DNA of 64,000 nt. Source: an uncultured Methanosarcinales archaeon (lineage in GTDB: Archaea; Nanobdellota; Nanobdellia; Woesearchaeales; UBA9642). Under the pieces are notes generated by a model. That model had not been told where the DNA came from. It saw only the letters and a list, made by a program, of their open reading frames with translations, and ran no database searches. The first letter of the stretch is position 1. Each line of letters starts with the position of its first letter. The position numbers and the translations under genes are program-made. Below, one piece after another: positions 10,003 to 41,450 of the stretch. The stretch covers positions 7,232 through 71,231 of the forward strand of contig CAZQDS010000001.1 of NCBI GenBank assembly GCA_964591655.1, in the 5' to 3' direction.

Positions 10003-10009
10003 TCCTAAA

Positions 10010-13369: not shown

Positions 13370-13444
13370 ACGAAAAATATGCTTGAATACGCTAAACAAG
13401 ATTGATTTAAAAACAAAATCTTTATATACTAAAAACGTAAGGAA

Positions 13445-14671: not shown

Positions 14672-14684
14672 AGAAGGTGATCTT

Positions 14685-16351: not shown

Positions 16352-17308
16352 TTATCTAGAAACTGTCAATATGAATCTTGCTATAAGGCTCTCTAATTGC
16401 AGGAATTCATCGCTTCCTTCTACCATCCTGAATTCTATCTCTGCACAGTCTTTCATCATCTCTAGACGTTTTTCTGGGGTGATGTTCAGTTTCCATACTT
16501 CCTTATGCAATTGCTTTATTATGTCGATGCCTGATAATCCGTAATTGAGCATTGTGTCTAATAGTTTTGATTTGGCCTTTTCGAAGTCTTTCTTTATCAC
16601 ATGGTCGAGTATCTGGCTTATCTCTTTCGGCCTGGCGAATCCTGCAACCTCAAACACGACGGCCTCAGTTATCTTATTGCTCAATACTGCGCATGCCTGC
16701 ATTATGTTCTCGAGCTTTCTCACATCGCCTTCTGAAACTTCAACAAGTGCGTCTTTTCCGCCTGCATCTATCGATAATTTCTCTCTTGTGGCGATTGTCT
16801 CTATTATCTCGAATATCTCCTCTTTTGATAATGGCTTGAACCTGAATACTGCGCATCTTGATTGTATCGGCTCTATGATTTTTGATGAGTAATTGCAGCT
16901 GAGTATGAATCTGCATGTCTGTGAATAGTTCTCCATTGTCCTCCTTAATGCCTGCTGTGCCTCTCTCGTCAATGCATCGCATTCATCTAGGTATATTATC
17001 TTGAACGGCACATCTCCAATGGATTTTGTCCTTGCGAATTCTTTTACTTTGACTCTTATTACATCTATTCCCCTTTCATCTGATGCGTTCAATTCTAAGA
17101 AGTTTTCATGCCAAGAATCTCCATATAATTGCTTAACCACAACTAATGCGAGCGTGGTCTTCCCTACGCCTGCAGGCCCTGCAAAGAGTACATGAGGCAT
17201 ATTCTTCTGGTCGACAAACCCCTTTATCCTCTTGACAATCTCTTTCTGCCCTTTCACTTCCTTAAACGTATCTGGCCTGTACTTTTCTGTCCATAATGAA
17301 TATTCCAT
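16352..17308 (-). CDS. rfcS: replication factor C small subunit
   Basis: 'WTEKYRPDTFKEVKGQKEIV...LFAGPAGVGKTT' (RFC box II/III, Walker A), 'YLDECDAL' (DEAD-like), SRC motif region; 318 aa with no intein. Confidence 0.9.
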   Translation of the reverse strand: MEYSLWTEKYRPDTFKEVKGQKEIVKRIKGFVDQKNMPHVLFAGPAGVGKTTLALVVVKQLYGDSWHENFLELNASDERGIDVIRVKVKEFARTKSIGDVPFKIIYLDECDALTREAQQALRRTMENYSQTCRFILSCNYSSKIIEPIQSRCAVFRFKPLSKEEIFEIIETIATREKLSIDAGGKDALVEVSEGDVRKLENIMQACAVLSNKITEAVVFEVAGFARPKEISQILDHVIKKDFEKAKSKLLDTMLNYGLSGIDIIKQLHKEVWKLNITPEKRLEMMKDCAEIEFRMVEGSDEFLQLESLIARFILTVSR

Positions 17309-17342: not shown

Positions 17343-19141
17343 TTACCTATCTCTCAGCATCGCTGTCAAGTAAGGCCATAATTCTGCTTCCGGATCAGAA
17401 TATTTTATCAATAGCACTTGGCTTCCTGAAGTGTTTGTGTACTCATAATATGCTCCGCCTATCGTCTTATTGACATATTCTATGTTGAAAGAGTTGTTCT
17501 GAGGAATATTCTGTCCTGTCATATTTAGATACATCAATGTCATCAATTCCTGAACTTGCTCATCATACTTCCTTTCTTCAACGCCATAAACTTTCAGGGT
17601 GTTATTGTTCAGCACATATAGTCTTTCATAATTTTTAGTCTGCGCAGCCAATCCTAAAGGCTCTGAAGGAGTATACCCGAATAGGTTTTGGAAGAATCCT
17701 ACTATTGCATTCCATATGTTGCTGAAGAATCCTCCTTCAATATTTAATTCTGAATCGCTCACCAGATAATAAAATGAGTCTAAATTGACATAAAGATATA
17801 GGGCGCCGTTGGTGGCACCATAATGCCCGCACTTCACAAATGTTGCTTCGGCATCATATCCGTCGCAGACACGATAACTTTCTCTCACAAACGAAGGGAC
17901 TATCAATTCTATGTCTAAAACATTTCCTGTCAAATCCGCGATATGTTTTTGGTACAATCTCCACATTATATCATCTGATCCATCTACATCTGTCGTCGGA
18001 TCTTCTGCATAGAATCCTGTGATTATCCTTTCTTCATCGCCCTCTTTTGATATCAGCACGCAACCGCCAGGGATGACTCCTGAATCTACGCCTATAAGGT
18101 TGTTGAATATTGCCCCAGTATCATCACAGAATATTATGTATGGTTTGTCTGCAGAGATGTTCTCTAAAACATTGGCTATTAGGAACGTCTTCGTCGTCCA
18201 TTCGCCGTTCATGCAATAATGGTTACCTTGATTCATCACGAAATTATTGTTTATGAACTGTCCATTCTTTATGCACGAGCTTCTCGAATTATTTAAAGAG
18301 TCGATGAATGCTTGTCTGTTTTCTGGAGTCGTTCCGAATGTGTTACTGACGAAACAATCACTGTCTCTTATGCAATATCCTGATTCTTCGAAGTTCCAAT
18401 CATACTTGACTTGTGCCTCTTCCCAATTGGCATAATTAGAATCATTCAATATGCACCTGTATCCTCTTGAAAGCCAATGCATCGTCGTATTTACATGAGT
18501 CCTATAATAAGAATTGATATCTATTATGCTCCATAGATTAGAATTATTAGAGATATACCATGGATCAGATGTCACACATTGGCTTCCATCCCAACAATAC
18601 TCTGCAGGACAACAAGCAGTAGTAAGGTTTATCGGAGGCTGCAACTGTTGTTGCGCATCAATCGGAGAGACTTCCTTGAACGATATATCATCGAATTTCG
18701 CTTCAGTACATCCGGCATCAACATGTATCCTCACACTTACGTTTTTGAAATATCCTTGTGATGCGTCTGGATCGCTGGCTGGAAGAAGAACGGTTTTTGA
18801 ACCGCTGGTAGTTAATCTGAATGGCACATCATTAAAACAACCAGTCTGTACCCAATTTGTTCTGCTTAAACAACGACCATCATTCAAATCAACCCTTACG
18901 ACACATCCTGCGGCGACAGTTATGTTCGCCCTCAAAGTATATTCTTTCCCTAACCTAATATCGAATGGATCTGAATAGATATCGATAGCTGTGCCCGAGG
19001 TCGTTGTGCCTACTAAAACCAATTCTTCATTCACAGACCATCCTGTGCTTGTTGTACGCCAGCCACTCATGTCTGCATAAGCGCTCGGCAATAAAACTAA
19101 TGAAATTAATGCAATAATCCATAATGTTGTATTCTTCATTT
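17343..19141 (-). CDS. large secreted Cys-rich protein
   Basis: Probable start at 'MKNTTLWIIALISLVLLPSAYA' (signal peptide), abutting the stop of the upstream giant gene. Many Cys ('TACCPAEYCWDGSQC'). Confidence 0.5.
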
Positions 19142-22100
19142 TAATTTCCGGTATTGTTTCCTTGTTGTGCACATACTGTTGGAGGACAATCGCCACCAAA
19201 CTTTCCATTCTTCAACAACTCAGTAGCAGGAGGAATAGATTTCAGGTGTAGTTCTGAAGGGGTCGCGGGATAATACGAGTTATCAACTATATCGTATGAT
19301 TGCCCTATTCCCGGAGTATATTGTCTCCATATTCCATTGAAGCAATAATAATCATCTCTGACTTCACATTGGTCATTTACATAAGTATTCACCAATTGTG
19401 GATAGCTTGTCTGATATGTTCCATCATAACTTACTCTTATAGAATAATATTTTCCTGATGGAACTTGACATCCAATAAAAGTGTTGTTGAAATATAATAA
19501 ATCAGAATAATTATAAGATTTTAATTCATCTAACATACTAAAAAATTTAGTGTTATCTTCATAATATCCGTGTGATTTCCAAACAGATTCTCCTTCAGGA
19601 ACACCTATTCCTGCAAAGCATCCGGCAGATTTATCCCATGTCGGAACAGAACTATCATTAAAGTATTCAGGATATTTAGTAGGGTCAGTAATATCCGTGT
19701 CATCTCCACAACAATGATGTCCTGTCCATATATATGGCCATTGTGCTTCACATGTTACGGCGTATCGCCCGTATCCTTCAAGCCATGCGTCATCACCGAT
19801 AAAGAATGTGTCTGTCGGATTGGTTATTTCTGAATCTAATTGAGGAATCCATGCAGCGAACCCTCCTGTACAATAATGGTTATCTGACCCGGCAGTGGCT
19901 TGTGTAGGGTCTATTGTTAAGTATATATTATCATATTTGAATTCTGCAATACTAGGGAATACGCTTCCATTTAAATCTACTTTTATTGTTTGTAGTATTT
20001 GCTGTTTATTTTCAGGTTTTATCCTTATCTTAATATGATGTGGAATCAATTCCTGATCTCCGTTTGTAGAATAAGTAGTTAATAAATCGTAAGGAACATC
20101 ATTTATATAAACTTTCCCTACCCTATTTTTACGATTGTATACTACGTCCATTTCTATATAATCAAAATAACTTAGGAAAAAATTCTTGTCATCAATATTT
20201 GTGAGAGAGTATCGCACAGATGTTTCAGTCGTAAACCTTTTTGCTAAATCATCTATTTTTGATATGCCTGATTTAAAACGATCATAGGATTTTATAATAT
20301 TATAATTGAGCCCTAATGAAAATATCCTGTTTTGTGTTATATCAACATATGGTGTTCCGCCAAACTGCTTAAAATTATTACAATCACCTACACAGCACTG
20401 TCCAAAATAATTATTTGACTCTGATGCAAAACAAGAGAAGGTGGCATTATTCTCGTTTTCAAAAAAAGAGAATGGGAAAAAAAGTTTGTCCATAAATACG
20501 CCGAAACAACAATATGTGTCATCATCAATCATCACATCTTGATCTGGCGGAGCACATATTAGGTTTTCTGTTTTTTCATAAGGCGTGCCTCCTGCCAGAG
20601 TACATTCATCCTCATTTGTTATTAGGGTTCCGAGCAGACATTCTTTATCTTCAGGATCTCCAAAACAGCATCTTTCTCCTTGAGGATACACTATTGCTCC
20701 GTTAACGCAAACATTACCTAAAGCGCAAGGAAGCCCTCTCCCAAAATCTTGCGCTGCACAAGATTTTCCTTCATCATAGGTAGATAAATCTGAACATAAT
20801 CTTTCATTTTGTTTACATATTTCCTTCAAAATCTCTTCTTCGCCAAATCCTCCCGCACCCAAACAAAAAGGATTGGTTGGGTATAACAAACAAAAATAAT
20901 TTTCTGTACTCGCATCAGAGAAACAGTAACATCCTTTTGCCGATTCTGGGTCTGCAAAAATATTTTTTGGTTCTCCATTCTCACAACAAGGATATTGTAT
21001 TGGCACATTATTACAATCATAGTGCGGATTTCCTGTTAATATTGTAGCTATATCACTACACTCCATGTTGTTTAAATTTCTATTAGGCGGTGCAGGGAAA
21101 GAATCATATTCTAACACGGGCAATCCTTTCAATCCAGTCGTTCCATCCGCATTACAATAATACCACTTGTCCGAATTTGATATATAATCGACTGTTTTTC
21201 CAGAAAAATTCAATGGAGTTATCAAGAAAGGTTTTTCTGGAGCAGATATCCACATCCATTTATCTTCTGTGCCACCATAAAAGTTTGTTTTATTGTTATA
21301 ACATAAATATTTATTATCAGGAGTTACATACCCATAGTCTCCGCCATTCAATGGAAAACTTATTCTAATATAATCTACCCATGATTCTTGCCCAGTATTA
21401 TGTGTGGTCACTCTCAAAATCCTTAATCGCACATCGTTGACTGTTATTGAACAAGATCTTTCAACACCCGGCGTTACTGGATGTAATATGACGCCATGCA
21501 TTCTGCCCGGATCGCCCACTACTCTAAGAGGGTCGCATCCCTCAACAGTGATGTCAGCGTTATTAATGAAAAATCCTGTTCCAGTATCATCCATAAAATA
21601 AACACGTAAGGTCGCGCCTGATTTTGAAGGGTCGTCATTTATCGTGAAAGTCGTCTTTTGATTATTATAAGAATAAGAAATATCTTTCATGGCACCACTA
21701 TTCGCGGTGATTAATTTCAAAAAGCCATCTTCAATAGTTGGAGAAGGATAGCCCGGTTGTGGTTGCCAACCATTACTATTATCATTGAAAGGTTCGAAAA
21801 ACAATTCGTCTTCGCTAAAGTCATCTCCGCAACAACCATCGGCACCATCATTTGCAGAAGGATTATACCAGGGCTCCATCTCTATAAGCGGTTTTATTGA
21901 GCAATTGACTCCTCCACTCGTACAATCTTCATCATCTGTGTCTGTTTTTCCATCAAAATCATTATCATATTCATCGTTACATCTTGTTTCCTTATCATAT
22001 TCGCAAACACCTATCTTGCCATTGAAATCAAGTGGTCCTGTACGGGTTTTACAATCTTCATCAAAGCAATCGACATTTGGTTCTCCGAAATTAGGATAAC

Positions 22101-22920
22101 TGTCATTTCTAGCTAAATATCCTCTTGTAGTAAAATACTTCGTATGATCATACCATGAAACATTTACACCATCATCGGCATAAGTCCAATCGACATCATT
22201 GTCACGAAAATCATTACAGATAGTCTCGGTTTCTGTAATATAAGAATTCCATACAGAAGTGTATCTACTAGGAGGCATTACTGCGGCAAACGGATAATGA
22301 TTTCTAACATCATTGCCGCTCGCATCTACAAGTCGTACACGCATGAAATCCTTGCCGCCGCTTTCATGATAAAGAATAACTATCTTATTCCAGCCGCGCG
22401 TAACAGGGATGGCGGCGCTACTCCAGCCCCCTCCAGAGGTAATTGTGAAAGTGTGGGTATATGTTTGAGTTTCTGTTGTACCGACAAGCTCAAAGACTGC
22501 GAGTGTAAATGTATCATCAACACGATAGTTTATATAAAAATCCTTGTTAGAGGCAGAATACACAACGAAATCTGCTCTGGCATAATACGGACCGGTACAA
22601 TCGCCATCATCATCAAAATCTTCTGCGCCCTGATCAGCCATACAAAATCCAGCAAAATAATTTTCGTCCCACCCACGATCACCAGAATCAGAAGCAAAAA
22701 TTTTACCTAATACGGGCTCTCCACGATTAGTCCAATCTGATGGGAAACTCGGGCAAGAAAAATCACAAGTATGATATAAAAACTGATGCTCTCCATATGG
22801 ATAATTATCCCAGAATGAATCATTATAGAAAACCGGATCAAATTCTGCTCTTACACTAACCGATAATAATACGAATAGAACAGATATCAATAACCCTTTC
22901 CAGATTAGTTTCATAAACAC
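19141..22920 (-). CDS. giant secreted Cys-rich protein (1259 aa) with thrombospondin-type-3-like Ca-binding motif
   Basis: Signal peptide 'MFMKLIWKGLLISVLFVLLSVSVRA'; 'CNDEYDNDFDGKTDTDDEDC' (DxDxDGxxDxDDxDC); repeated 'CCGDD' motifs; more than 80 Cys. Confidence 0.55.
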   Translation of the reverse strand: MFMKLIWKGLLISVLFVLLSVSVRAEFDPVFYNDSFWDNYPYGEHQFLYHTCDFSCPSFPSDWTNRGEPVLGKIFASDSGDRGWDENYFAGFCMADQGAEDFDDDGDCTGPYYARADFVVYSASNKDFYINYRVDDTFTLAVFELVGTTETQTYTHTFTITSGGGWSSAAIPVTRGWNKIVILYHESGGKDFMRVRLVDASGNDVRNHYPFAAVMPPSRYTSVWNSYITETETICNDFRDNDVDWTYADDGVNVSWYDHTKYFTTRGYLARNDSYPNFGEPNVDCFDEDCKTRTGPLDFNGKIGVCEYDKETRCNDEYDNDFDGKTDTDDEDCTSGGVNCSIKPLIEMEPWYNPSANDGADGCCGDDFSEDELFFEPFNDNSNGWQPQPGYPSPTIEDGFLKLITANSGAMKDISYSYNNQKTTFTINDDPSKSGATLRVYFMDDTGTGFFINNADITVEGCDPLRVVGDPGRMHGVILHPVTPGVERSCSITVNDVRLRILRVTTHNTGQESWVDYIRISFPLNGGDYGYVTPDNKYLCYNNKTNFYGGTEDKWMWISAPEKPFLITPLNFSGKTVDYISNSDKWYYCNADGTTGLKGLPVLEYDSFPAPPNRNLNNMECSDIATILTGNPHYDCNNVPIQYPCCENGEPKNIFADPESAKGCYCFSDASTENYFCLLYPTNPFCLGAGGFGEEEILKEICKQNERLCSDLSTYDEGKSCAAQDFGRGLPCALGNVCVNGAIVYPQGERCCFGDPEDKECLLGTLITNEDECTLAGGTPYEKTENLICAPPDQDVMIDDDTYCCFGVFMDKLFFPFSFFENENNATFSCFASESNNYFGQCCVGDCNNFKQFGGTPYVDITQNRIFSLGLNYNIIKSYDRFKSGISKIDDLAKRFTTETSVRYSLTNIDDKNFFLSYFDYIEMDVVYNRKNRVGKVYINDVPYDLLTTYSTNGDQELIPHHIKIRIKPENKQQILQTIKVDLNGSVFPSIAEFKYDNIYLTIDPTQATAGSDNHYCTGGFAAWIPQLDSEITNPTDTFFIGDDAWLEGYGRYAVTCEAQWPYIWTGHHCCGDDTDITDPTKYPEYFNDSSVPTWDKSAGCFAGIGVPEGESVWKSHGYYEDNTKFFSMLDELKSYNYSDLLYFNNTFIGCQVPSGKYYSIRVSYDGTYQTSYPQLVNTYVNDQCEVRDDYYCFNGIWRQYTPGIGQSYDIVDNSYYPATPSELHLKSIPPATELLKNGKFGGDCPPTVCAQQGNNTGN

Positions 22921-27073: not shown

Positions 27074-27877
27074 TTATTTCTTCTTCCACATCTGCTCGAA
27101 CATTTCTTTCAATGTGTTTGCGAAGTAAGGTGTCTTGACCCAGACTCCGACATCATAGCTCGGATGTACGTCCTTGTCATCTGTCAACATGAACAGTATA
27201 TGTTGATCATCGACAATGATGAATCTTGCATTCATGCTTGGAACGCTCTTCACTTCTGCTATCCCTTTCAATTCTGCAGAATATTTCTCTAGATCCTTAT
27301 CTTTTCCTTGTGGAACGAGAACTTTCACTGCGACGCCCTTATCTGAAAGCTTCTTCAGTGTCTTCTTCATGTGCTGTGTCTTTCTTGATAATCCTTCATG
27401 TGAAGTCATTATGCAGACAGTCTTCTCTGCACCTTTTATCATTGATTCCATATGATCATAGATGTTTGTCCTATCTTTTACCAAACCGACCATTTCTGTA
27501 GGTTCGACCATGTCTATGCCGTGTGTATGTAATTCGGTCAATTGGTTCAGAATTTGAGAATCCTTCAATTCATCCATCTGTAATTCTTTCTGGACCGATT
27601 CTTCTTTTATCCTTTTCTTTATGGTGTTTATTACTTCTGATGGAGGTATTGCCATATATTTTATAGGTTTCCCCAGTTTCATTATGATGAATCCTTTCTT
27701 CTCTAATGATTCTAGAACGTCATATGTCCTTGATCTTGGGACGTTGGAGATGTCGCTTAATTCTCCTGCTGAACTTACTCCTCTTGATAAGAGTGCTGCC
27801 CATATCTTTGCTTCATAAGAATTCAATCCGAAATCCTTCATCTTCTTTACTAATTCTGGTTGTACTAACATTTTCAT
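27074..27877 (-). CDS. TrmB-family transcriptional regulator (paralogue)
   Basis: 'SYEAKIWAALLSRGVSSAGELSDISNVPRSRTYDVLESLEKKGFI' is nearly identical in motif to 5369..6202. Confidence 0.7.
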   Translation of the reverse strand: MKMLVQPELVKKMKDFGLNSYEAKIWAALLSRGVSSAGELSDISNVPRSRTYDVLESLEKKGFIIMKLGKPIKYMAIPPSEVINTIKKRIKEESVQKELQMDELKDSQILNQLTELHTHGIDMVEPTEMVGLVKDRTNIYDHMESMIKGAEKTVCIMTSHEGLSRKTQHMKKTLKKLSDKGVAVKVLVPQGKDKDLEKYSAELKGIAEVKSVPSMNARFIIVDDQHILFMLTDDKDVHPSYDVGVWVKTPYFANTLKEMFEQMWKKK

Positions 27878-28096
27878 TTACCCCCAACGGTCATAATTAT
27901 AAAACAAATCACAGTCTGAAAAGACTTGTTGTCTAGGGGAAGTAAATACTCTTTATAAAGGTTATTATTTTGTTGCTATTCTTGAGTGAATACTATTTTG
28001 GATGTTGTTTTTAGATGTTGTTTTTAGTGCTTACATTTTTTATATTGATCCTAATATATCGGAATTTGACCAGTATTTGATGGAATCTTACAGACT

Positions 28097-28114
28097 CCTT
28101 TGTTTCTTCTGGAA
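28097..28114 (-). promoter_or_regulatory. ORB-like origin recognition box 1
   Basis: Exact 18-mer cctttgtttcttctggaa. Its reverse complement TTCCAGAAGAAACAAAGG resembles the archaeal mini-ORB core TTCCAGTGGAAAC. Confidence 0.55.
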
Positions 28115-28149
28115 ATTTGTTTTGAGTGTTTGAACGATTGTGCTTCTTT

Positions 28150-28260
28150 TTTCTCTTCTTTATTTATTTACTATATTGAAAATAATATATATAATATATA
28201 TAATATATATAATAAATAATAAATATAATAATATGTATAAAAGAAAACATATATTGAAAG
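28150..28260. promoter_or_regulatory. AT-rich duplex-unwinding-element candidate
   Basis: Run of almost pure A/T ('ataatatatataatatatataatatatataataaataataaatataataatatg') between the two ORB-like repeats. Confidence 0.5.
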
Positions 28261-28531
28261 AAATATTTATTGTTATTTTTACAGTTTTTGTGCTTAAATC
28301 ACGATAGTTGGCGTTCTTTGAGAGTGATGTGTGAGAAGAAATATCTATTCATTTTAAATATAAGTTTAAAACATCTTTAACAGATTCCGATAACATTTTC
28401 CATTTCTCCATAAGAAATCATGGGGTGGTATAGTGTTTCAAAACGATAATTCAGATAAGGTACATTCATTCATTTATATTCTAAGAATAGGTTTCTTTAA
28501 TATATTATAGAAATACAAAATATTTATATAA

Positions 28532-28549
28532 CCTTTGTTTCTTCTGGAA
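28532..28549 (-). promoter_or_regulatory. ORB-like origin recognition box 2 (overlapping the orc1/cdc6 promoter)
   Basis: Second exact copy of cctttgtttcttctggaa, about 12 bp upstream of a TATA-like 'tattataag' (28561..28569). An RBS-like 'gagggg' (28583..28588) precedes the ATG at 28594. Confidence 0.55.
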
Positions 28550-28593
28550 GTAGTTCAGTCTATTATAAGTTATATTCGTGCTGAGGGGTTTAA

Positions 28594-29799
28594 ATGGTTA
28601 TAAGTGATTTTTTAGAAAATTTCATAAAAAAAGAATCTCTGTTCAAGAACAAAGCAGTCCTGCAAAGCTCATATTTTCCAGAGGAAGTATTGCATAGGGA
28701 GGAACAGATAAATCAGATAGCGAAAATACTTGCGCCAGGTCTTAGGGCGGAAAGGCCATCAAATATATTCGCATACGGAAAGACCGGTACAGGGAAAACA
28801 CTCACGATACAATACACCCTAAAGGAGATAATCAAGATATCTCAGAGAGAGAACATCCCTCTGAAATATATCTATATCAACTGCAAACTGAAAAAAGTTG
28901 CAGATACAGAATACAGGCTTATAGCAGAAATAGCAAGACATCTAGGGAAGACCATTCCTCCGACAGGACTTCCTACTGATGAAGTCTACAACATATTCTA
29001 CAGGGCCATCAATCAAGAAAAGAAAGTGATAATAATAGTGCTAGATGAGATAGATCAATTGGTGAAGAAAATAGGTGATGAAGTTATATATAATCTCACG
29101 AGGATAAATACGGAGCTGAAAGAAAGCCAGCTAGCAATAATCGGCATAAGCAACGATGTAATGTTCGCTGACAATCTGGACCCGAGAGTAAAAAGCTCAC
29201 TTAGTGAAGAGGAGATAGTGTTCCCATCATATAATGCAATACAGATACAGGACATATTGAAGAAAAGGTGCAATGAGGCCGTAAAAGATGGGGTGATAGA
29301 GGACGGCGTGATAGCGAAGTGTGCAGCATACGCCGCCAGGGAGCACGGCGACGCGAGAAGGGCATTGGAGCTGATAAGGGTCGCAGTAGAGATCGCAGAA
29401 AGAAAAGGGATATCGAGCATAACATTGAAAGAGCTCGATGAGTCGGAAGAAAAGATAGAGAAAGACAGGGTCATAGATATAATAACGACCCAGCCGAAAC
29501 AATTCCAGCTCGTTCTTTATTCGATACTTATCATCGGGAACAGGAAAAAGAGCAACGACCCGATATTTACAGGAGACATATATCTGTTGTACAAGGACCT
29601 ATGCAACAAGACAAACCTTCGGCCGCTCACCCAAAGGAGGGTGTCTGATGTGATTTCAGAGTTTGACCTTTTAGGGATAATCAATGCCAAAGTAATAAGC
29701 AAGGGGAGATATGGGCGGACGAGAGAAGTGAACATAGTCACGAACGAAACCACCAACAACAAGATAATATCCTTGTTAGAAACATCATTGAACCTTTGA
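28594..29799 (+). CDS. cdc6: Orc1/Cdc6 replication initiator
   Basis: AAA+ Walker A 'FAYGKTGTGKTL', Walker B 'IIVLDEID', sensor regions and a C-terminal winged helix; 401 aa. Confidence 0.9.
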   Translation: MVISDFLENFIKKESLFKNKAVLQSSYFPEEVLHREEQINQIAKILAPGLRAERPSNIFAYGKTGTGKTLTIQYTLKEIIKISQRENIPLKYIYINCKLKKVADTEYRLIAEIARHLGKTIPPTGLPTDEVYNIFYRAINQEKKVIIIVLDEIDQLVKKIGDEVIYNLTRINTELKESQLAIIGISNDVMFADNLDPRVKSSLSEEEIVFPSYNAIQIQDILKKRCNEAVKDGVIEDGVIAKCAAYAAREHGDARRALELIRVAVEIAERKGISSITLKELDESEEKIEKDRVIDIITTQPKQFQLVLYSILIIGNRKKSNDPIFTGDIYLLYKDLCNKTNLRPLTQRRVSDVISEFDLLGIINAKVISKGRYGRTREVNIVTNETTNNKIISLLETSLNL

Positions 29800-29827: not shown

Positions 29828-31642
29828 ATGAAAATGGATAAACAACAAATAATAAGATTTTATTTGGAGAACAAGATATTGTTGAGTCCGGAATTGCTCG
29901 AATATCTAGATAAACCTTTCCCCCTGAACACCAATTTCTCAGTCCTCAATAAGGATGCGCTGCTGATAACTGAGAATAAGATACCTATAAACATCGCGGA
30001 TTATGAGCGGGCAGTGGTCCTTAAAGAAAAGAACCACAATAAAAGACTTTATGAGAAGTTCCAGGAATACATAATCAACAACATCAGGAAAGTGCAGACA
30101 GACATAAAAAAGAGCGATACAAAAGAAGACGAGCGCCTGAAAGAAACAGCAAGAGAAATAGAAGACACTCGCGCGGAGAAAAATGCCTTAACGGATGTCG
30201 ATAGAAAATACGATGTGGGTGCCGAAGAAAAAACATCCGCTGAAGAGACGCCCTCAGATAAGATAAAGAATGCGTCCGTCGAAAAAAATGACAGGCAGAA
30301 AGAAAACGCAGAAACGGTGTCTGAGTCAAAGCTCGACGCATATAAAGAGAACCTGATAAGGACCAACAGGATAAGGATAATCAGCGATTACAGGGAAAAG
30401 AGCAAGAAAAGAAGTGTGCAGGATTTTGTAGGGTTCTTCAATTCCAGATTCAAGGAACTCGAGAAGATATTGCGCTCGAGGCAAGAGTTGCAAAACCTCA
30501 CATCAATATCGAGGATAAACTCCAAGAAGGAGAAAGACAATGTCGCCCTGATAGGGATAGTCTACGACAAGCAGACGACAAAAAACAACAACATAATGTT
30601 GACATTGGAGGATCAGACAGGGACTGTGAAGGTCGTCGTGACACAGGCCAAAGAGGAGCTGTTCGCTCTGGCACAAGAGATACAATTAGATGAGACAATA
30701 GGCGTGACAGGGATGTACGATGGCCTGATATTCGCCAACAACATACTGTTGCCGGACATACCGTTGACAAAAGAGCTGAAAAAATCTCCGGAGGAAGGAT
30801 ATTTCGCCGTGATAACGGATCTGCAAGTAGGGAACAAGCTTTTCTTGGAGGAAGAATTCAAGAAATTTTTACAGTGGCTGAACGGCGAAGCAGGGAGTGA
30901 AACACAGAAAGAGATAGCATCTAAAGTGAAATACTTATTCATTGTCGGCGACATGGCCGAAGGCGTAGGGATATATCCTGATCAAGAATATGATCTGAGC
31001 ATAATAGATGTGCGTGACCAATATAGGAAATTGGCAGAATATCTCAAGGACGTAAAGATACCTATATTCATCTGTCCAGGAAATCACGACGTAGGAAGAT
31101 TGAGCGAGCCGCAGCCAGGGTTCAGGGACGAATATAGCAAGCCATTATGGATGCTCCCTAACGCAATATGCCTGAGCAACCCTTCGCTGGTCAATATATT
31201 CTCATCGGACAGCTTTGAAGGATTTGACGTATTGTTATATCATGGAGGATCATTCTTCTATTATTTCAACAACATCCCTACAATAAGGCAGAAAGGCGGC
31301 GCGACAAGGTCGGACCTCGTGATGAAATATCTGTTGCAGAGAAGACACTTGGCACCCTCACACACATCCACAGTATATATCCCTGATGCGCAAAGAGATC
31401 CCTTGGTCATCGATAGGGTCCCTGATTTTTTCTTTTCAGGACACGTGCACAGGGCCACAGTCAATAATTATCGCAATGTCACTTGCATAAATGCTTCATG
31501 CTGGGTCGCAAAGACAGATGAACAGGAAAGGAGGGGCCTCGACCCGCAACCCGGGAGAGCGTTCATCATTAACATGCAGACGAGAGAAGTGAAGATAATG
31601 AACTTCCTATCCAAAGATGAGGGCACAGAGAAAAATGAGTGA
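29828..31642 (+). CDS. polB: DNA polymerase II (PolD) small subunit DP1
   Basis: Calcineurin-like phosphoesterase motifs 'ICPGNHDVGRL' and 'FFSGHVHRA'. OB-fold middle region. The stop overlaps the DP2 start. Confidence 0.9.
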   Translation: MKMDKQQIIRFYLENKILLSPELLEYLDKPFPLNTNFSVLNKDALLITENKIPINIADYERAVVLKEKNHNKRLYEKFQEYIINNIRKVQTDIKKSDTKEDERLKETAREIEDTRAEKNALTDVDRKYDVGAEEKTSAEETPSDKIKNASVEKNDRQKENAETVSESKLDAYKENLIRTNRIRIISDYREKSKKRSVQDFVGFFNSRFKELEKILRSRQELQNLTSISRINSKKEKDNVALIGIVYDKQTTKNNNIMLTLEDQTGTVKVVVTQAKEELFALAQEIQLDETIGVTGMYDGLIFANNILLPDIPLTKELKKSPEEGYFAVITDLQVGNKLFLEEEFKKFLQWLNGEAGSETQKEIASKVKYLFIVGDMAEGVGIYPDQEYDLSIIDVRDQYRKLAEYLKDVKIPIFICPGNHDVGRLSEPQPGFRDEYSKPLWMLPNAICLSNPSLVNIFSSDSFEGFDVLLYHGGSFFYYFNNIPTIRQKGGATRSDLVMKYLLQRRHLAPSHTSTVYIPDAQRDPLVIDRVPDFFFSGHVHRATVNNYRNVTCINASCWVAKTDEQERRGLDPQPGRAFIINMQTREVKIMNFLSKDEGTEKNE

Positions 31643-34600
31643 AAATAGGTGTATTGAAAAAAATGGTTGATTGTTCGAAAGAGATGCAAAAATATTTCGA
31701 TGAATTGGAAGAAAGATGTTTCAAAGAGTTCAAGATAGCTTCAGATTCCCGAAAGAAAGGCTATGATCCGGCCACAGTCCCAGAGATAATACTCGCGAAG
31801 AACATGGCTGAAAGGGTAATAGGTCTGATAAGCGTAATCGCTCCCCAATTAAAGAACACCGGCGCAACAGAAAGGATAACGGAATTAGAGAAGGAATACG
31901 GCATACTCGATTGGCGTGTAGCATTCACTATCGCAGAAGAGGTCGCGAGAGAAAAATTTTGTAAATTTAAAGACCAAAAAGAGGCAATAGAAGTGGGCAT
32001 ACGTACAGGATTCGCATATGTCACGGTGGGTGTGGTGTCCAGTCCCATAGAGGGATTCACACATATAGACATAATGGACAGGATGGATGGTGCAGGAAAA
32101 TATTTTTGTGTTAATTTTTCTGGTCCGATAAGGAATGCCGGCGGGACGGCCGCAGCCGTCTGTGTCTTGATTGCCGATTTCTTGAGAAAGAAATTCGGAT
32201 ATGCCAAATATGATGCTACAGAATTGGAAATAAAGAGGACTTATTCTGAAGTGGAGGATTACCACACGAGGTTCAGTCCAAGGCAATATTTTCCCAGCAG
32301 GGAAGAGATAGACTTCCTGATGAGGAATGTCCCTGTGCAATTGGGAGCAGAGCCTTCAGAAAGATATGAGGTTTCCAACTATAAGGACCTTCCAAGAGTT
32401 CCAACGAACATAATCAGGAGCGGCTTCTGTCTGCTATATACTGATTGTATCCCCTTGAAGTCTGCAAAATTATGGAAACAGCTCAGCAAATGGGGCAAGA
32501 ATTTTGACATGGAAGATTGGATGTTTTTAGAGGAATATCTGAAGATCCAAAAATCTGCAAAGGCTTTGAAGAAAAAGGCAGAATCTTCAGGAAAGATAAC
32601 TCCAGATTATACATACATAAAAGATCTCGTCGCTGGAAGACCTGTCTTAGGTTATCCGTTGAGGAATGGCGCGTTCAGGCTAAGGTATGGGCGTTCAAGG
32701 GTTTCCGGGTATTCCGCGCAATCGGTACATCCTGCAACGATGCAAGTGCTTAATGGATATGTGGCTACGGCGACACAATTGAAGGTTGAGCGTCCAGGAA
32801 AGGCGACAGCGATATCGAGCTGCGACACCATAGATGGGCCGATCGTAAAGCTATATAACGGCAACGTATTGTTTTTAGAGACTGAAGCGATGGCCAAGCA
32901 GTATAAGAAAGAGGTCAAGGAAATACTTTACCTGGGGGATATCTTGGTCTCTTATGGAGATTTTTTCAATAGGAATCACCCTTTAGCGAACCCAGGATAT
33001 TGCCAGGAGTATTGGGTCCTGGAATTTGAGAAATCTGCATTTGAGAAATTTCCTTTGGATATAGAGGACCCTGAAGACGCTTACATAACGAGCTCTGATT
33101 ATAAAAAAATCGACCTTCAGAAACTTGCAGACGATGTACGGATATCTAAAGATAAGTTAGAGGTCATATTCAGGAAGCCTTTACGTACAAAACTCTCGGC
33201 AGATGCCGCCATAAGCATCTCTAGGAAATTAGATGTGCCGCTACACCCATATTACACTTATTATTGGAAATCATTGAATATCTACGAATTGAAGTCATTG
33301 ATTAACTGGTTCTTGGAAGCGAAGATATTGCATTATGAAAATAAACCGGACGCCAAAGTGGAAAAGATAGTCCTTCCGAAAGGAGAGGGGAAGAGGGCCT
33401 TGGAGCTTCTCGGGATCCCTCACCTGTTTGTGAATAACGAGTTCGTCGTCATAGAAGGAGACCACGCAGATGCATTGTTGGCGACATTGAATATACATGA
33501 GATAATGCTGAAGGACGATATAGAATCAATAAATAAGATAATCTCAGAAACACAGCCAGACATAGGCAAAGAAGATGAGCTGCTGTTGAAGATAATAAAC
33601 AGGATATCTCCTTTCCCGATAAGGGATAAGGCCGGCATATTCATAGGTTCGAGGATGGGGAGGCCAGAAAAAGCCAAGATGAGAAAGCTTGCCGGACAGC
33701 CGAACATGTTGTTTCCTGTGGGGGAAGAAGGAGGCAAGATGAGGAGCCTGCAATCTGCTATGGAGGCAGGAAAGATAACCTCAAGCTTCCCGATATTCTA
33801 TTGCGAGAAATGTAATAGGACGACTCCCCTGTCGATATGTGAAATGTGTGATAAGCCTACAACGAAAAAGATGTATTGCCGGGAATGTAAAAATACAGAA
33901 TGCGTCAATGAGTCCCACCCGAAATTCACATACTCTAATTACGCTTTGAATATCAATGAGATATTTCCGTTGATGCTGAAAAAACTCAATACAAAGATAT
34001 ATCCTGACATGATAAAAGGGATAAAAGGCACAGCGAACATAAACCATGTTCCTGAACATTTGGTTAAAGGGATACTGCGCGCAAAACACAGCGTATCGGT
34101 ATTCAAGGACGGGACAGTGAGGTACGACATATCTGAAGTGCCATTGACACATTTCAAACCTAAAGAGATAGGTGTGGGTGTAGAGAAGCTCCGTAAATTA
34201 GGATATGTCAGAGATACTAAAGGACGCCCATTAGAGCGAGAAGATCAAGTGCTTGAGCTAAAACCGCAAGACATAGTCCTCCCTTGCAGTCCAGATAGTC
34301 CTGATGAATCGGCAGACGAAGTCTTGTTCAGGACAGCAAATTTCATAGATGAATTGCTGGAAAAATTGTATGGGCAGAAACCATATTACAGGTTTAAAGA
34401 AAGACAGGACTTGGTCGGAACGGCAGTCATAGGTCTTGCGCCGCACACATCGGCAGGAATACTCGGCAGGATAATAGGATTTTCGAAGACACAGGCATAC
34501 CTTGCACATCCGATGTTCCATGCAGCGATGAGAAGAGATGCGGATGGAGATGAATCATGTATATTGTTGCTTCTTGACGGGCTTTTAAATTTCTCCAAAG

Positions 34601-35289
34601 AATACCTTTCGAACAAGAGGGGTGCTACGATGGATGCACCGTTGGTGCTTACATATATATTGAACCCTGCCGAAGTCGATGACATGGTATTCGATCTTGA
34701 TATAGGATGGAGATATCCTCTGGAGCTTTACGAAGCGGCAAAAGAGTTCAAGCCTGCACACACAATAAAGATAAATCAGTTAGGCAAACACATCGGAACG
34801 TCATTCCAATATGAAGGGATGGGATTCACACATGACACGGAAGATTTCAATGCAGGGATATTATGTTCGGAATATAAGCTTCTTCCTTCGATGGAAGAGA
34901 AACTTTTCGGACAGATGGATCTGGCGATGAAGATACGCGCAGTCGATTCTGGCGATGTGGCAAGATTGGTCATCGAGAAACACTTCATAAGAGATATAAA
35001 AGGAAACTTAAGAAAATTCTCCACACAGCAATTCAGATGCAGCAATTGCAATGAGAAGTATCGTAGGCCGCCATTAGCAGGAAAATGCACAAAATGTAAT
35101 GGAAAGATAATATTCACTATATCGGAAGGCTCTATAATAAAATATCTTGAACCGACGATAAGTTTGGGGGAGAAGTTCAAGATCCCCGCATATTTGACAC
35201 AGACCATAGAATTGACGAAACAAAGGATAGAGAGTTATTTCGGCAAGGAAGCAGAAAGCCAGGCAGGATTAGGGAAGTGGTTCGGGTGA
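31639..35289 (+). CDS. polC: DNA polymerase II (PolD) large subunit DP2
   Basis: Catalytic region 'AHPMFHAAMRRDADGDE' and C-terminal Zn-finger cysteines ('CSNCNEKYRRPPLAGKCTKCNGK'). 1216 aa, with no obvious intein. Confidence 0.9.
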   Translation: MKIGVLKKMVDCSKEMQKYFDELEERCFKEFKIASDSRKKGYDPATVPEIILAKNMAERVIGLISVIAPQLKNTGATERITELEKEYGILDWRVAFTIAEEVAREKFCKFKDQKEAIEVGIRTGFAYVTVGVVSSPIEGFTHIDIMDRMDGAGKYFCVNFSGPIRNAGGTAAAVCVLIADFLRKKFGYAKYDATELEIKRTYSEVEDYHTRFSPRQYFPSREEIDFLMRNVPVQLGAEPSERYEVSNYKDLPRVPTNIIRSGFCLLYTDCIPLKSAKLWKQLSKWGKNFDMEDWMFLEEYLKIQKSAKALKKKAESSGKITPDYTYIKDLVAGRPVLGYPLRNGAFRLRYGRSRVSGYSAQSVHPATMQVLNGYVATATQLKVERPGKATAISSCDTIDGPIVKLYNGNVLFLETEAMAKQYKKEVKEILYLGDILVSYGDFFNRNHPLANPGYCQEYWVLEFEKSAFEKFPLDIEDPEDAYITSSDYKKIDLQKLADDVRISKDKLEVIFRKPLRTKLSADAAISISRKLDVPLHPYYTYYWKSLNIYELKSLINWFLEAKILHYENKPDAKVEKIVLPKGEGKRALELLGIPHLFVNNEFVVIEGDHADALLATLNIHEIMLKDDIESINKIISETQPDIGKEDELLLKIINRISPFPIRDKAGIFIGSRMGRPEKAKMRKLAGQPNMLFPVGEEGGKMRSLQSAMEAGKITSSFPIFYCEKCNRTTPLSICEMCDKPTTKKMYCRECKNTECVNESHPKFTYSNYALNINEIFPLMLKKLNTKIYPDMIKGIKGTANINHVPEHLVKGILRAKHSVSVFKDGTVRYDISEVPLTHFKPKEIGVGVEKLRKLGYVRDTKGRPLEREDQVLELKPQDIVLPCSPDSPDESADEVLFRTANFIDELLEKLYGQKPYYRFKERQDLVGTAVIGLAPHTSAGILGRIIGFSKTQAYLAHPMFHAAMRRDADGDESCILLLLDGLLNFSKEYLSNKRGATMDAPLVLTYILNPAEVDDMVFDLDIGWRYPLELYEAAKEFKPAHTIKINQLGKHIGTSFQYEGMGFTHDTEDFNAGILCSEYKLLPSMEEKLFGQMDLAMKIRAVDSGDVARLVIEKHFIRDIKGNLRKFSTQQFRCSNCNEKYRRPPLAGKCTKCNGKIIFTISEGSIIKYLEPTISLGEKFKIPAYLTQTIELTKQRIESYFGKEAESQAGLGKWFG

Positions 35290-36764: not shown

Positions 36765-37172
36765 CTATATCTTAGAATTTATTGCTGATTTCGCGCCGCA
36801 TGCCTGACATCTCATGAATGTAACGATTCCCTCTTTAGAAAGTTTTGTGTCCGGTTTACCGCACTCTTTGCATATCACGAACTGATCTACATACTGCTCT
36901 ATCTTCTCATTTATTTTCGAACTAGGTATCTTTGTGTTGAACACTAATAATTGTTTCTTTACCTCTCCTTTTGCTGCAGTCTCCCTTGAGATAAACTTTA
37001 GTAAATGCTCAGGAGTCCTCCTAAGAGCGGATGCTATCTGGAAGAAATTGCTTATGACAGTCTTATTGCCTTCGAGATGTCCGCTGACTTTAGGAACAAC
37101 AAACCTTTCTGAAGCTACAGAAACCTCTGGCAAATTCTTCTTTCCCCTGTCGAGCATCAGTTCATAATCCAT
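36765..37172 (-). CDS. eif2b: translation initiation factor 2 beta subunit
   Basis: C4 zinc ribbon 'CKECGKPDTKL...CQACGA' and a conserved N-terminal helix; 135 aa. Confidence 0.8.
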   Translation of the reverse strand: MDYELMLDRGKKNLPEVSVASERFVVPKVSGHLEGNKTVISNFFQIASALRRTPEHLLKFISRETAAKGEVKKQLLVFNTKIPSSKINEKIEQYVDQFVICKECGKPDTKLSKEGIVTFMRCQACGAKSAINSKI

Positions 37173-38616: not shown

Positions 38617-39261
38617 CTACATCAACTTTATCTTTCCAGGCTTCCTCTCGAAGATATCGCCGCGGAGTATCATATCTTGTATAAGATCTTCGGCATTCTT
38701 TATCTTAGAAAAACGTATTATCTCATCAATGTCTGCCCCTTCGCCGCCATCTAGTTCTTTGATCAATGCGATTATCCGCTCTTTAGAGCCGAGCGTGTTT
38801 GTGCTCTCCACGATTTCTGCGTCTTTTTTCACATCATGGCGCGTAGTTGTCCTTATCTTCTTGATCAATGATAGCTCTTTCTTCCTATACGCGATCCATG
38901 CCTTGTCCTTGATTTTCTTGACCAAATCCAACGTCAAATAAATCTGCGAGTTATACTCTCTAGGCCTGGCGATCAGCAATACGGGGTCGCCTATCGAGAT
39001 ATTCATCAAAAGCTCCTTCTTATCGAAAACTCTTGCAACTATTTGTCCAGTACCGTCATCTACAGTCATGGATGATTCGTCCTTATTGACAACCACTGCG
39101 ATTATGTTCACTCTGGAGAAATCTCCATAATCAGTCATCAGATAACTTGATTCCCAACCAGGCCTTTTCACAAAAACACCCTTGTTAAGATTATCTATGC
39201 TGCACTTGAATGCTGTCTGCCGTTTGAAATCCGTTTTTTGTTCTTCAGCCATTTTGATCAT
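38617..39261 (-). CDS. OB-fold plus C-terminal winged-helix protein (RPA32/Stn1-like architecture)
   Basis: Central OB-like core 'VNIIAVVVNKDESSMTVDDGTGQIVARVF...GDPVLLIARPREY'; C-terminal 'RIIALIKELDGGEGADIDEIIRF...ILRGDIFERKPGKI' wH-like. 38 bp downstream of mcm on the same strand. Confidence 0.35.
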   Translation of the reverse strand: MIKMAEEQKTDFKRQTAFKCSIDNLNKGVFVKRPGWESSYLMTDYGDFSRVNIIAVVVNKDESSMTVDDGTGQIVARVFDKKELLMNISIGDPVLLIARPREYNSQIYLTLDLVKKIKDKAWIAYRKKELSLIKKIRTTTRHDVKKDAEIVESTNTLGSKERIIALIKELDGGEGADIDEIIRFSKIKNAEDLIQDMILRGDIFERKPGKIKLM

Positions 39262-39299: not shown

Positions 39300-41327
39300 T
39301 TATAATCTGCTTATGAAATTGGATCTCGGCGCGAATATGTCCCCCGCCTTTTTCAGCCTGTCAAGTATCTCCTCTGTCTTCTCTTGGTCTATGCCTTTGT
39401 CTTTTGCCCTCATAACAATATCATCGACGGGTATTTGTTTACCTATCTGTCCCTCTAGTTCGTGGATTATCTCTTTGATGGTCGATATTGTTCCTCTCTG
39501 GCTTGCAGTTATCCCTGTCGTTATCCTGTCAATATCCAATTTTCCTGTTTCTGGGTCTACACCTATCTGTGATAAGCAGAAATGCACGAGCTCTATGGCT
39601 CTTTTTGCATCGGTCTTTGTCACTTTATCTGATAGTCTGGACCTTGCGCTCGCCTCACTCAATCTTATGAGCGCCTCTAATTGCCTGGCCGATATCGGGA
39701 TCGATTTATATCCCTCTTCACCCTCACCAGTGGATCGCATTTTTACATAATACTCCTTTATCTCTTCTAATGCGCCATCGGTCATCTGCGGGTTGATGTG
39801 CTGTCTTCCGTAGGCGATATATTTTTTTAATATCTGTGTAGGTATGTCTATCTCTCCTCCAGATGATTCCTTATGGAGTTTTAATATGAAATCTGCAGTC
39901 CTTTCATCTTTTGCCTTATTAGGGATGTCTCTTATGGGGAATATCAGGTCGAACCTGTTGATCAATGTCGATGGCAGCTCAATCTGTTTAGGGATCAATT
40001 CATACGGATCGAACCTTCCGAATTTTGGGTTTGCTGCCGCCAAAACAGTTGTTTCAGCACGTAGTGTCGCAGAGATGTTTGCCTTGTTTATGGAGATGGT
40101 CTGCTGTTCCAATGCCTCGTGCATTGCTGAAGTGTCCTCTTTAGTCATTTTATCCAACTCATCTATACAGCAGATTCCCCTGTTTGTCAGCACAAGTGCT
40201 CCGGCCTCTAATGCATATCCTCTCAGGAATTCGTCCTTGACGACTGTCGCAGTCAATCCTGCAGCGCTCGCACCCTTTCCAGAGACATATCTTGATTTTG
40301 GCGCAACGATGGAGACCCTCTTCAGCATCTGGCTCTTTCCAGATCCAGGATCTCCTATCAGGAGCACATGTATGTCTCCTCTTGTAACAGAGCCATCATC
40401 TTTCTTTTTTCTTACTCCGCCGAATAGTTGTAATATCAAGGCCTCTTTCACTTTTTCATGACCATATATCGAAGGGGCGACAGAATTGATTAGTCTCTTC
40501 GTGAGTTTAGGGTCTTCAGACAGCTCCTTTATCTCTTTGACTTCTTCATCAGTTATTAATAATTCGGTGAAATCTTCTGCTACGGCCTCTACATGGTTTG
40601 CTTCCAGCATCAAGTCGAATCTTGTAAGTTTTCCGCCGTCTCTTGCGATTATAGGGACTTCTTTCAACACTCCTGTGATTATGTTTTTAGATCCAGGATT
40701 CGTCTTTTTTTCAGACATGGGACTGACTAGGTCTGATTTCAAGAATATATCCAGCCGTTTTGGCTGTTCTGAACCTTCTAATTCTTCAGGCGCTTCTTCA
40801 AGAACTATCTTTTGCGCATCGATCATCTCTTTACTTATTAATTTGAATTTGCCTTTTCTTCCGCAACCACATTTTGTCGGCTCCCTGAATTTTGTATCGA
40901 ACTGTAAGACCGTCAAAGTGTTTCCACAACTAGGACATTCGAATCTTGCAGATGTGACTTGCGGTCTGACGTCTGATTTCTGTCGTATTATCCCGGTGAC
41001 TTGTATGAATTTGTTTAAGTGGGTGCTTCTGATGTTCCTTATCATCTCCTGCTGTGTTTTCGGCAGATTCCTGACCCTGACTTTGAAGTCTTTTATATTG
41101 AATCCGAATTGTTCTATGCTTATCTCTGCAGCCCTTATCGTGTCTTCAGGATTGTCTATCAGGTCTTGTGCAAGGTCTAGGTTGAACTTACTCAATTCAC
41201 TGAAATTAATGGATATTGATTTGTCTCCCTTGGACATCGCCTGATGCAATTGTTTTTTATATATCAGGTCAAAGAATTCATGAAACTTATCTATCTGTTC
41301 TGTGACGTCCATGGCTTTCAGGAACAT
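39300..41327 (-). CDS. mcm: MCM replicative helicase
   Basis: Zn finger 'CPSCGN...CGCG', Walker A 'LLIGDPGSGKSQML', Walker B 'CIDELDKM', arginine finger 'SARQLEALIRLSEA'. 675 aa, with no intein. Confidence 0.9.
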   Translation of the reverse strand: MFLKAMDVTEQIDKFHEFFDLIYKKQLHQAMSKGDKSISINFSELSKFNLDLAQDLIDNPEDTIRAAEISIEQFGFNIKDFKVRVRNLPKTQQEMIRNIRSTHLNKFIQVTGIIRQKSDVRPQVTSARFECPSCGNTLTVLQFDTKFREPTKCGCGRKGKFKLISKEMIDAQKIVLEEAPEELEGSEQPKRLDIFLKSDLVSPMSEKKTNPGSKNIITGVLKEVPIIARDGGKLTRFDLMLEANHVEAVAEDFTELLITDEEVKEIKELSEDPKLTKRLINSVAPSIYGHEKVKEALILQLFGGVRKKKDDGSVTRGDIHVLLIGDPGSGKSQMLKRVSIVAPKSRYVSGKGASAAGLTATVVKDEFLRGYALEAGALVLTNRGICCIDELDKMTKEDTSAMHEALEQQTISINKANISATLRAETTVLAAANPKFGRFDPYELIPKQIELPSTLINRFDLIFPIRDIPNKAKDERTADFILKLHKESSGGEIDIPTQILKKYIAYGRQHINPQMTDGALEEIKEYYVKMRSTGEGEEGYKSIPISARQLEALIRLSEASARSRLSDKVTKTDAKRAIELVHFCLSQIGVDPETGKLDIDRITTGITASQRGTISTIKEIIHELEGQIGKQIPVDDIVMRAKDKGIDQEKTEEILDRLKKAGDIFAPRSNFISRL

Positions 41328-41390
41328 TCAGCTAAGCTAAACTGTCCATCCCCCTCAAATTTTAAAAGTAAAAAAATTGAAAATATTTTA

Positions 41391-41449
41391 TTGAAATTTA
41401 TTAAAAATTTCAATTTTTAATTCCAAAACTTATTTTCTAAATAAGTTTT
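41391..41449. terminator. two perfect inverted repeats in the tbp-mcm intergenic region
   Basis: 41391..41413 is ttgaaattt-attaa-aaatttcaa. 41425..41449 is aaaacttattt-tct-aaataagtttt (11-bp arms), immediately 3' of the TBP stop. Confidence 0.35.
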
Positions 41450-41450
41450 G

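Follow-up and report, generated by a model that had tools for sequence, protein, structure and literature searches.

The 716-bp gap upstream of the initiator gene orc1/cdc6 in a 64,000-nucleotide stretch of contig CAZQDS010000001.1 (the whole stretch is called the window here) is, with a probability of roughly 0.8, an origin of the widespread oriC1 kind at which a DPANN archaeon of the Woesearchaeota type starts to replicate its chromosome. It carries three copies of a 22-bp origin recognition box (ORB), two of them inverted around an exceptionally AT-rich tract and the third situated in the orc1 promoter. The case for an origin is made at the level of sequence, statistics, conservation and geometry. 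An earlier note on this DNA had placed a candidate ORB-bearing origin directly upstream of orc1/cdc6 and the polD genes, a proposal supported by the motif statistics, by the position of the least stable DNA of the window and by conservation of the layout among relatives. The elements of the gap on which the argument turns are as follows.

27878-28593: candidate origin gap, 716 bp, between the gene for a TrmB-like regulator and orc1
28094-28115, − strand: distal ORB, 24.8 bits, reading TTTCCAGAAGAAACAAAGGAGT on the − strand and holding the first 18-mer
28150-28260: putative AT-rich duplex unwinding element, 91% A+T, with its core at 28159-28258
28164-28185: quasi-palindrome TTATTTACTATATTGAAAATAA, inside the unwinding element
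28405-28426, + strand: inverted ORB, 22.3 bits, TCTCCATAAGAAATCATGGGGT, the right member of the flanking pair
28523-28531, + strand: orc1 TATA box, TTTATATAA, directly adjoining the proximal ORB at its G-string end
28529-28550, − strand: promoter-proximal ORB, 22.7 bits, holding the second 18-mer
28594-29799, + strand: orc1/cdc6 of the Orc1-1 class (Pfam Cdc6_C, Cdc6_lid and AAA)

The repeated element within this arrangement is an 18-mer, CCTTTGTTTCTTCTGGAA, which occurs exactly twice in the window, at 28097-28114 and 28532-28549, both on the + strand, just as the earlier note had reported. Its reverse complement, TTCCAGAAGAAACAAAGG, matches the ORB core, and the likeness to ORBs that had been noticed proves to be well founded, the 18-mer being the core of a full 22-bp archaeal ORB. 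When up to three mismatches are allowed, there are four matches in the window, compared with 0.10 expected from shuffles, the other two lying at 42220-42237 and 42304-42321. A 22-nt ORB matrix was trained on related loci alone, with the window excluded; the related set comprises 75 loci from a scan with the window Orc1 protein, at identities from 93% down to 38%. Every TTCCA...GAAA in these loci was collected as a site, and flanking positions played no part in the selection. The resulting consensus, tTTCCAnanGAAAyaaaGGkGt, shows the classical ORB plan of a dyad core with a G-string behind it, and the G-string, seated 4 nt after GAAAy, emerges at positions outside those used for selection. Against a background of block shuffles of the window and at a threshold of 16 bits, the window contains six ORB sites where 0.19 are expected. 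Three of these reside in the orc1-upstream gap, which holds just these three even at a threshold of 10 bits. All strong matches of the 64 kb are confined to two gaps that adjoin replication genes. The motif is not limited to the origin region, a second ORB cluster being present 13.6 kb away.

The same motif marks the equivalent position in relatives. Across 70 related Orc1 loci, the 800 bp that precede orc1 contain 167 ORBs (3.4 per kb) and all other DNA (693 kb) contains 19 (0.027 per kb), which amounts to a density about 125-fold above that found elsewhere; the a-priori pattern TTCCANNNGAAA alone gives 2.53 versus 0.023 per kb. These figures leave very little room for the view that the two 18-mers are a random or generic intergenic repeat without initiator function. 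AT-rich intergenic DNA does yield many short repeats, 13 direct-repeat families having been found, and a tandem 13-mer near the distal ORB is such a repeat. The ORB motif, however, has four matches in the 18-mer count given above where 0.10 are expected, is concentrated beside replication genes and seldom seen elsewhere in related DNA, possesses a G-string, and is conserved where the surrounding DNA has diverged.

According to the earlier note, the two 18-mers flank the AT tract and do so in direct rather than inverted orientation, which would be atypical. The flanking pair is a different one. A third ORB, at 28405-28426, lies in the opposite orientation and had been overlooked because its first base departs from TTCCA; since its partner on the far side of the AT tract is the distal copy, the apparent anomaly disappears. 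The functional pair would consist of 28094-28115 (−) and 28405-28426 (+), two inverted ORBs that enclose the AT-rich unwinding element with their dyad ends directed inward and their G-strings outward. In all, the gap has three sites of 22-25 bits with both dyad core and G-string.

The tract enclosed by this pair was described in the earlier note as essentially pure A/T between 28150 and 28260. It is a real feature, but with 91% A+T that description goes slightly too far; the longest pure A/T run (also the longest of the window) covers 56 bp, at 28179-28234. Nearest-neighbour free energy (dG) was calculated per 100 bp across the 64 kb, and no other 100-bp segment of the window is as rich in A+T (94%) or as unstable as 28159-28258, whose dG is -88.9 versus a mean of -129.4 (standard deviation 7.3). 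The full spacer between the inverted ORBs extends from 28116 to 28404 (289 bp, 80% A+T). Related loci display the same association between inverted ORBs and AT-rich DNA: among 47 with an adjacent '-' then '+' ORB pair, a 60-mer from the top 1% of the locus in AT content lies inside the spacer in 45, and the locus-wide AT maximum does so in 37, with a median spacer of 266 bp.

Embedded in the unwinding element is the quasi-palindrome at 28164-28185, a member of a family with the consensus TTATTTwCTATATwGAAAATAA that takes the form of a perfect palindrome, TTTTCTATATAGAAAA, in many loci. Scored with a matrix trained without the window, it reaches 30.0 bits and is the sole window site above 12 bits, the shuffle maximum being 18.6. 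Of 48 ORB-flanked spacers, 35 contain the palindrome core, and in compact spacers of 85-122 bp it lies about midway between the ORBs. Its matches in the Orc1 loci are largely tied to the origin position (37 within 900 bp upstream of orc1, six elsewhere), and one of the six outlying matches belongs to a detached ORB-AT-ORB module of locus L008 (+7055). In a comparison set of 54 MCM loci from metagenomes, one match is found near a replication gene, between two ORBs beside the orc1 of locus L103. The element is probably either the site of an accessory factor or the point of initial melting, and could also be a start site; as to what, if anything, binds it, the neighbouring TrmB-like regulator would be no more than a guess.

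The layout as a whole, ORB(-)/AT tract/ORB(+)/(ORB-)/orc1-DP1-DP2, recurs in dozens of related Woesearchaeota loci. At least two ORBs are present in 44 of the 51 related loci whose upstream sequence extends to at least 800 bp, and the commonest orientation string is '-+-' (16 loci), that of the window, followed by '-+' (12) and '-++' (6). Relative to orc1, a '-' ORB stands at -230 to -800 in most related loci, and a '+' ORB is regularly found at -90 to -260. When the gap is aligned with its four closest relatives, it is poorly conserved save for two islands, the first of which is the '+' ORB with its GGGGTGG tail and the second AAATATTTATATAA, followed by the proximal ORB. One locus has a variant of this arrangement, in which ORB(-), 92 bp of nearly pure A/T and ORB(+) reside about 750 bp downstream of DP2 and not upstream of orc1.

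L008, 13000-13135: compact module with internal palindrome, downstream of polD

This module is detached from orc1 and therefore constitutes a unit of its own rather than a by-product of the orc1 promoter.

The third ORB of the gap is placed differently. At the orc1 TATA box there is a conserved block, AAATATTTATATAACC, and in 32 loci, the window included, the proximal '-' ORB comes right after a TATA-like element (TTTATATAA or CTTTATAAA); in many of these the start codon follows 3-25 nt after the ORB. In the window, the proximal ORB fills the spacer from the TATA box to the expected transcript start near 28552-28556, beyond which lies a 40-nt orc1 leader with a GAGGGG ribosome-binding site. 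The earlier note had the order reversed, with the second 18-mer just upstream of a TATA-like element; the conserved TATA box lies upstream of the ORB. The element that had been designated, at about 28561-28570, was rejected, as it is not conserved and belongs to a lineage-specific insertion, and in several relatives the proximal ORB leaves too little space on its downstream side for a TATA box. Protein bound between TATA box and start site is the standard archaeal geometry of repression, and the TATA-ORB-ATG arrangement conserved in the 32 loci in this way supports the autoregulation that had been thought likely, with the proximal ORB as a candidate autorepression operator of orc1. A bacterial counterpart is E. 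coli dnaA, which is autoregulated through initiator sites, the DnaA boxes, that likewise occur in the initiator promoter beside the origin (an archaeal parallel is given in PMC3936714), although protein family and promoter type differ and it is the archaeal TATA-to-start spacer that the window site fills.

The adjoining initiator gene has the attributes expected of a protein that would act at such sites. The encoded Orc1 scores above the cut-off of the NCBIfam equivalog NF001625, and among solved structures it comes closest to S. solfataricus Cdc6-1 (2qby_A, 1.4e-102) and A. pernix ORC1 (2v1u_A, 3.6e-92), the two initiators whose crystal structures include origin DNA. In alignment it keeps the DNA-contact motifs of the winged helix and of the initiator-specific motif (ISM), namely QRRVSD in the helix-turn-helix, GRYGxT in the wing and TGL in the ISM. 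No second orc1/cdc6 paralogue exists in the window, and ORC1 is reported to be single-copy across the phylum (10.64898/2026.05.13.725050).

Homology and geometry together suggest how Orc1 binding, MCM loading, firing and repression might proceed at this locus. The single Orc1/Cdc6 encoded by the adjoining gene would bind the three 22-bp ORBs as monomers with a defined polarity, and the initiators on the distal and inverted ORBs would recruit MCM hexamers into the AT tract, where melting would begin; the palindrome could contribute either as the site of an accessory factor or as the point at which the strands first separate. On the third ORB, Orc1 would block TFB and RNA polymerase, thereby repressing orc1 when the initiator is abundant.

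Several observations weigh against an origin at this position. The loci on which the ORB matrix was trained are the same as those in which enrichment was counted, a circularity that is escaped by the count made with the a-priori pattern alone and by the window, which was left untouched in training. The 289-bp spacer is longer than that of the most compact examples, which is roughly 100-130 bp. In a regression of GC and AT skew at fourfold sites with gene strand and position to either side of 28.25 kb as predictors, a clear transcription term was obtained and no replication term (side coefficient 0.0005 +/- 0.02), nor was there a better split point of the expected sign, although 64 kb is a small sample and the test accordingly weak. 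The earlier note had named the lack of a skew switch as a ground for rejecting the origin, and on that ground the result counts against it, with the weakness just stated. Many archaea have little skew. Gene orientation, too, shows no switch within the 64 kb. Finally, having ORBs and Cdc6 is no guarantee that they are used: T. kodakarensis is reported to replicate without its Cdc6 and presumed origin (PMC5663688).

The T. kodakarensis precedent and the lack of a switch in skew or gene orientation would also suit a gap that is no more than the regulatory region of orc1 and polD, made up of Orc1 operators and an AT-rich promoter zone, with replication starting elsewhere or without a fixed origin, as would the fact that one ORB clearly lies within the core promoter and that ORB clusters lacking an unwinding element occur in the same genome. 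We nevertheless regard this as unlikely. A promoter has no need of an inverted ORB pair 290 bp upstream that encloses the least stable DNA of 64 kb, and the ORB-AT-ORB module is conserved in 45-47 relatives, contains an origin-specific palindrome and, in L008, exists downstream of polD, away from the orc1 promoter.

The second ORB cluster of the window resides upstream of a row of genes for TBP, MCM and an RPA32-like protein, 12.4 kb from orc1.

42176-42197, + strand: ORB nearest TBP, 18.3 bits, CCTCCATGAGAAATGAAGGTCT
42217-42238, − strand: middle ORB, 19.7 bits, ACTCCACAAGAAACAAAGGTTT, conserved
42301-42322, − strand: distal ORB with full G-string, 24.7 bits, TTTCCACATGAAACATAGGGGT
41451-42029, − strand: TBP (Pfam)
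39300-41327, − strand: MCM (Pfam)
38617-39261, − strand: RPA32-like protein, 214 aa, which follows MCM in nearly all related loci

The RPA32-like protein matches Pyrococcus RPA32 (8oej_B, E 4.8e-07), a weak OB-fold match, and reaches the threshold of no Pfam family. Conservation of the TBP-MCM-RPA32-like row extends across the MCM loci, and in the same set ORBs number 3.6 per kb over the 450 bp that precede TBP, compared with 0.035 per kb elsewhere. Seen from TBP, the ORBs lie near -290 ('+'), -190 ('+') and -150 ('-'). Start-to-start spacings within the cluster are 41 bp and 84 or 104 bp, near whole helical turns: the ORBs at 42176 (+) and 42217 (−) form a convergent pair whose 41-bp spacing is repeated in at least 12 related loci, and in relatives the matching distal ORB stands 84 or 104 bp from the middle one. 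The cluster lies 44 nt upstream of the first TBP TATA box and is thus outside the core promoter. That promoter has two TATA-like boxes, ATTTATAAATAA and CTTTATAAATAA, at 42120-42131 and 42097-42108 (− strand, 23 bp apart start to start), both invariant in eight aligned sequences; the doubling may denote a strong or self-regulated TBP promoter.

Three strong ORBs, conserved at this position and adjoining the helicase gene, could be taken for an additional origin, or even for the real one, and several archaea do use multiple origins (PMC4010727). Such an interpretation is improbable, as the cluster lacks the other components of the orc1-upstream gap. There is no '-..+' ORB pair around an AT-rich stretch and no exceptional AT tract, the AT content inside being an ordinary 55-78%; the origin palindrome is absent from this TBP-MCM cluster in all MCM loci; and no initiator gene lies beside it, the one orc1 of the window being that of the origin gap. 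The sole candidate for an inverted partner, a fourth ORB inside TBP (41906-41927), was rejected as a by-product of the IPLEKMA codons, the synonymous positions of this ORB-like match varying freely in 29 genes. The cluster has no unwinding element and is therefore probably a regulatory, non-origin array for Orc1 binding, one that may control TBP-MCM or may titrate the initiator.

It is conceivable, and rather less than evenly probable, that the Woesearchaeota Orc1 is dual-purpose, serving the origin, its own promoter and the phased array before TBP-MCM-RPA32-like, and that the origin depends on a lineage-specific palindrome factor with a role like that of UBP at ucm in Sulfolobus, on an unrelated sequence. 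If so, expression of the helicase and of a general transcription factor would be tied, via the Orc1 array, to the level or nucleotide state of the initiator.

The proposed origin can be compared with several archaeal systems. Sulfolobus oriC1 likewise has three ORBs beside orc1-1, two of them inverted around an AT-rich unwinding element, and each inverted ORB binds an Orc1 monomer with defined polarity (PMC12141716). Initiators bound at Sulfolobus ORB2 and ORB3 have been shown to recruit MCM (PMC12141716). The ORB3-DUE-ORB2 spacer (DUE, duplex unwinding element) measures about 130 bp in Sulfolobus, compared with 289 bp in the window, and Sulfolobus has three origin systems where the window has one origin-type initiator. 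Inside the unwinding element of the Sulfolobales is ucm, an essential element bound by UBP (PMC12141716). The window palindrome resembles it as a short conserved motif inside the unwinding element between inverted ORBs, whereas the ucm sequence itself, ATTATACAAAC, is unrelated.

The Pyrococcus origin island shares with the window the order oriC-cdc6-DP1-DP2 and the presence of more replication genes nearby (PMC2643942); the earlier note had named this order, and orc1-DP1-DP2 is found in 66 of the 75 related loci. Pyrococcus also has inverted ORBs around AT-rich DNA, to which Cdc6 binds, and a second ORB cluster outside the origin, in that case inside dp1 (PMC1904270). Within the window dp1 (29828-31642), no match exceeds 10 bits. 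The ORBs of Pyrococcus are 34 bp long, with a G-string about 5 nt further from the dyad, and are accompanied by many 13-bp mini-ORBs (PMC1904270). This Thermococcales type, with long ORBs and mini-ORBs, does not occur in the window, whose sites are of the 22-bp type. The same 22-bp class is represented by the A. pernix ORC1-ORB complex (2v1u; PMC1904270), from an organism that differs in having two origins. Presumably A. pernix ORB4, CTCCACAGGAAACGGAGGGGT, has the same dyad-to-G-string spacing as the window motif.

In H. hispanica oriC1, the minimal origin is the AT-rich region between inverted ORBs with G-strings at the outer ends, and the polarity read from the mutated G-strings, CCCCCC at the left end and GGGGGGGG at the right, matches that of the window (PMC3936714). 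Its G-strings are extended relative to those of the window, and the G-string is contacted by the AAA+ domain (PMC3936714). The same organism provides a precedent for ORBs that are not an origin: oriC2D, an ORB cluster without origin activity, exerts negative control, for which titration of the initiator has been proposed (PMC3936714). The 42.2-kb cluster resembles this type in having ORBs without an unwinding element or origin features, and departs from it in that oriC2D has 11 ORBs in 722 bp directly downstream of its cognate cdc6, whereas the window has three phased ORBs far from orc1 and upstream of TBP-MCM. In position and number, the cluster differs from the Pyrococcus dp1 cluster as well.

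An origin beside orc1 is an expected feature; the canonical archaeal design is extended to DPANN, and current understanding is not overturned. Placing archaeal origins beside orc1 by ORBs and an AT tract, as in Ori-Finder 2, is routine. Full-text literature searches found no paper on ORBs in DPANN or Woesearchaeota and no sequence-level description of a DPANN origin, and a 2026 preprint rotated 208 Nanobdellota genomes to ORC1, the origin not being analysed (10.64898/2026.05.13.725050). What is added here is a corrected anatomy, an origin-internal palindrome and a conserved ORB array before the helicase operon, the last of which hints that the initiator also controls that operon. Together these provide an explicit origin model for one large DPANN order, comprising an ORB consensus, polarity, an unwinding element, a palindrome and a putative autorepression operator. 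As DPANN archaea are uncultivated, such a model may be of use for placing origins on metagenome-assembled genomes and for reading growth from coverage gradients.

The candidate origin is surrounded by a dense replication island, in which the earlier gene calls for Orc1/Cdc6, DP1 and DP2 stand and to which the following genes belong in addition to orc1, MCM and the RPA32-like gene.

16352-17308: RFC small subunit
29828-31642, + strand: PolD DP1 (Pfam)
31639-35289, + strand: PolD DP2 (Pfam)
36765-37172: aIF-2 beta
52548-54122: primase PriS
62559-63596: FEN1

The linkage of MCM with aIF-2 beta is known (PMC2643942). The TrmB-like regulator gene (27074-27877, − strand; Pfam TrmB, 3.9e-23), which forms the left border of the origin region, holds the same divergent position in about 20 related loci, and TBP-MCM lies a few kb from orc1 in about nine relatives; in L008, TBP-MCM is divergent from orc1. 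Runs of large open reading frames (up to 1259 aa) at 8320-15674 (+) and 17343-22920 (−) have no Pfam match at E 1e-5.

Several minor features accompany the two ORB-bearing regions. Around the TBP-MCM row, the spacer at 41328-41450 is about 90% A+T, contains the locus-wide most AT-rich 60-mer in about 12 of 29 related loci, and is probably a terminator plus promoter. An open reading frame of 198 aa at 42372-42968 (+), between a HAD hydrolase gene and the ORB cluster, has no family match and no counterpart in the 54 MCM loci, not even in those whose MCM is 95% identical, in which the HAD gene is the immediate neighbour upstream of TBP. Either this is a lineage-specific insertion or the frame is no real gene. 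MCM matches are split or stretched by 1-2.5 kb in L111, L113, L114, L117, L121, L008 and L025, as are DP2 matches in L041 and L049, which is as expected for inteins; in the window, both genes are uninterrupted.

Near the origin itself, a weak palindromic ORB-like sequence, TTTCCAGAGGAAG, lies at 28666-28696 (10.7 and 12.6 bits) in the first orc1 codons (YFPEE). A similar site occurs at +82 in locus L005, and the window sequence is probably a coding coincidence. No Rfam family or tRNA is present anywhere in the window. Toward the other end of the gap is the tandem repeat that the earlier note had also listed.

28001-28026, + strand: tandem 13-mer, GATGTTGTTTTTA x2

The repeat is present as described; it is not conserved in the four closest relatives and is probably incidental. 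Between the TrmB-like gene and the distal ORB, at 27944-27995, is a block of the form CTTTATAAAG...TTTTGTTGCTATT...AGTGAATACTA that is conserved with L002 and L005 and might serve the TrmB-like gene as promoter or operator.

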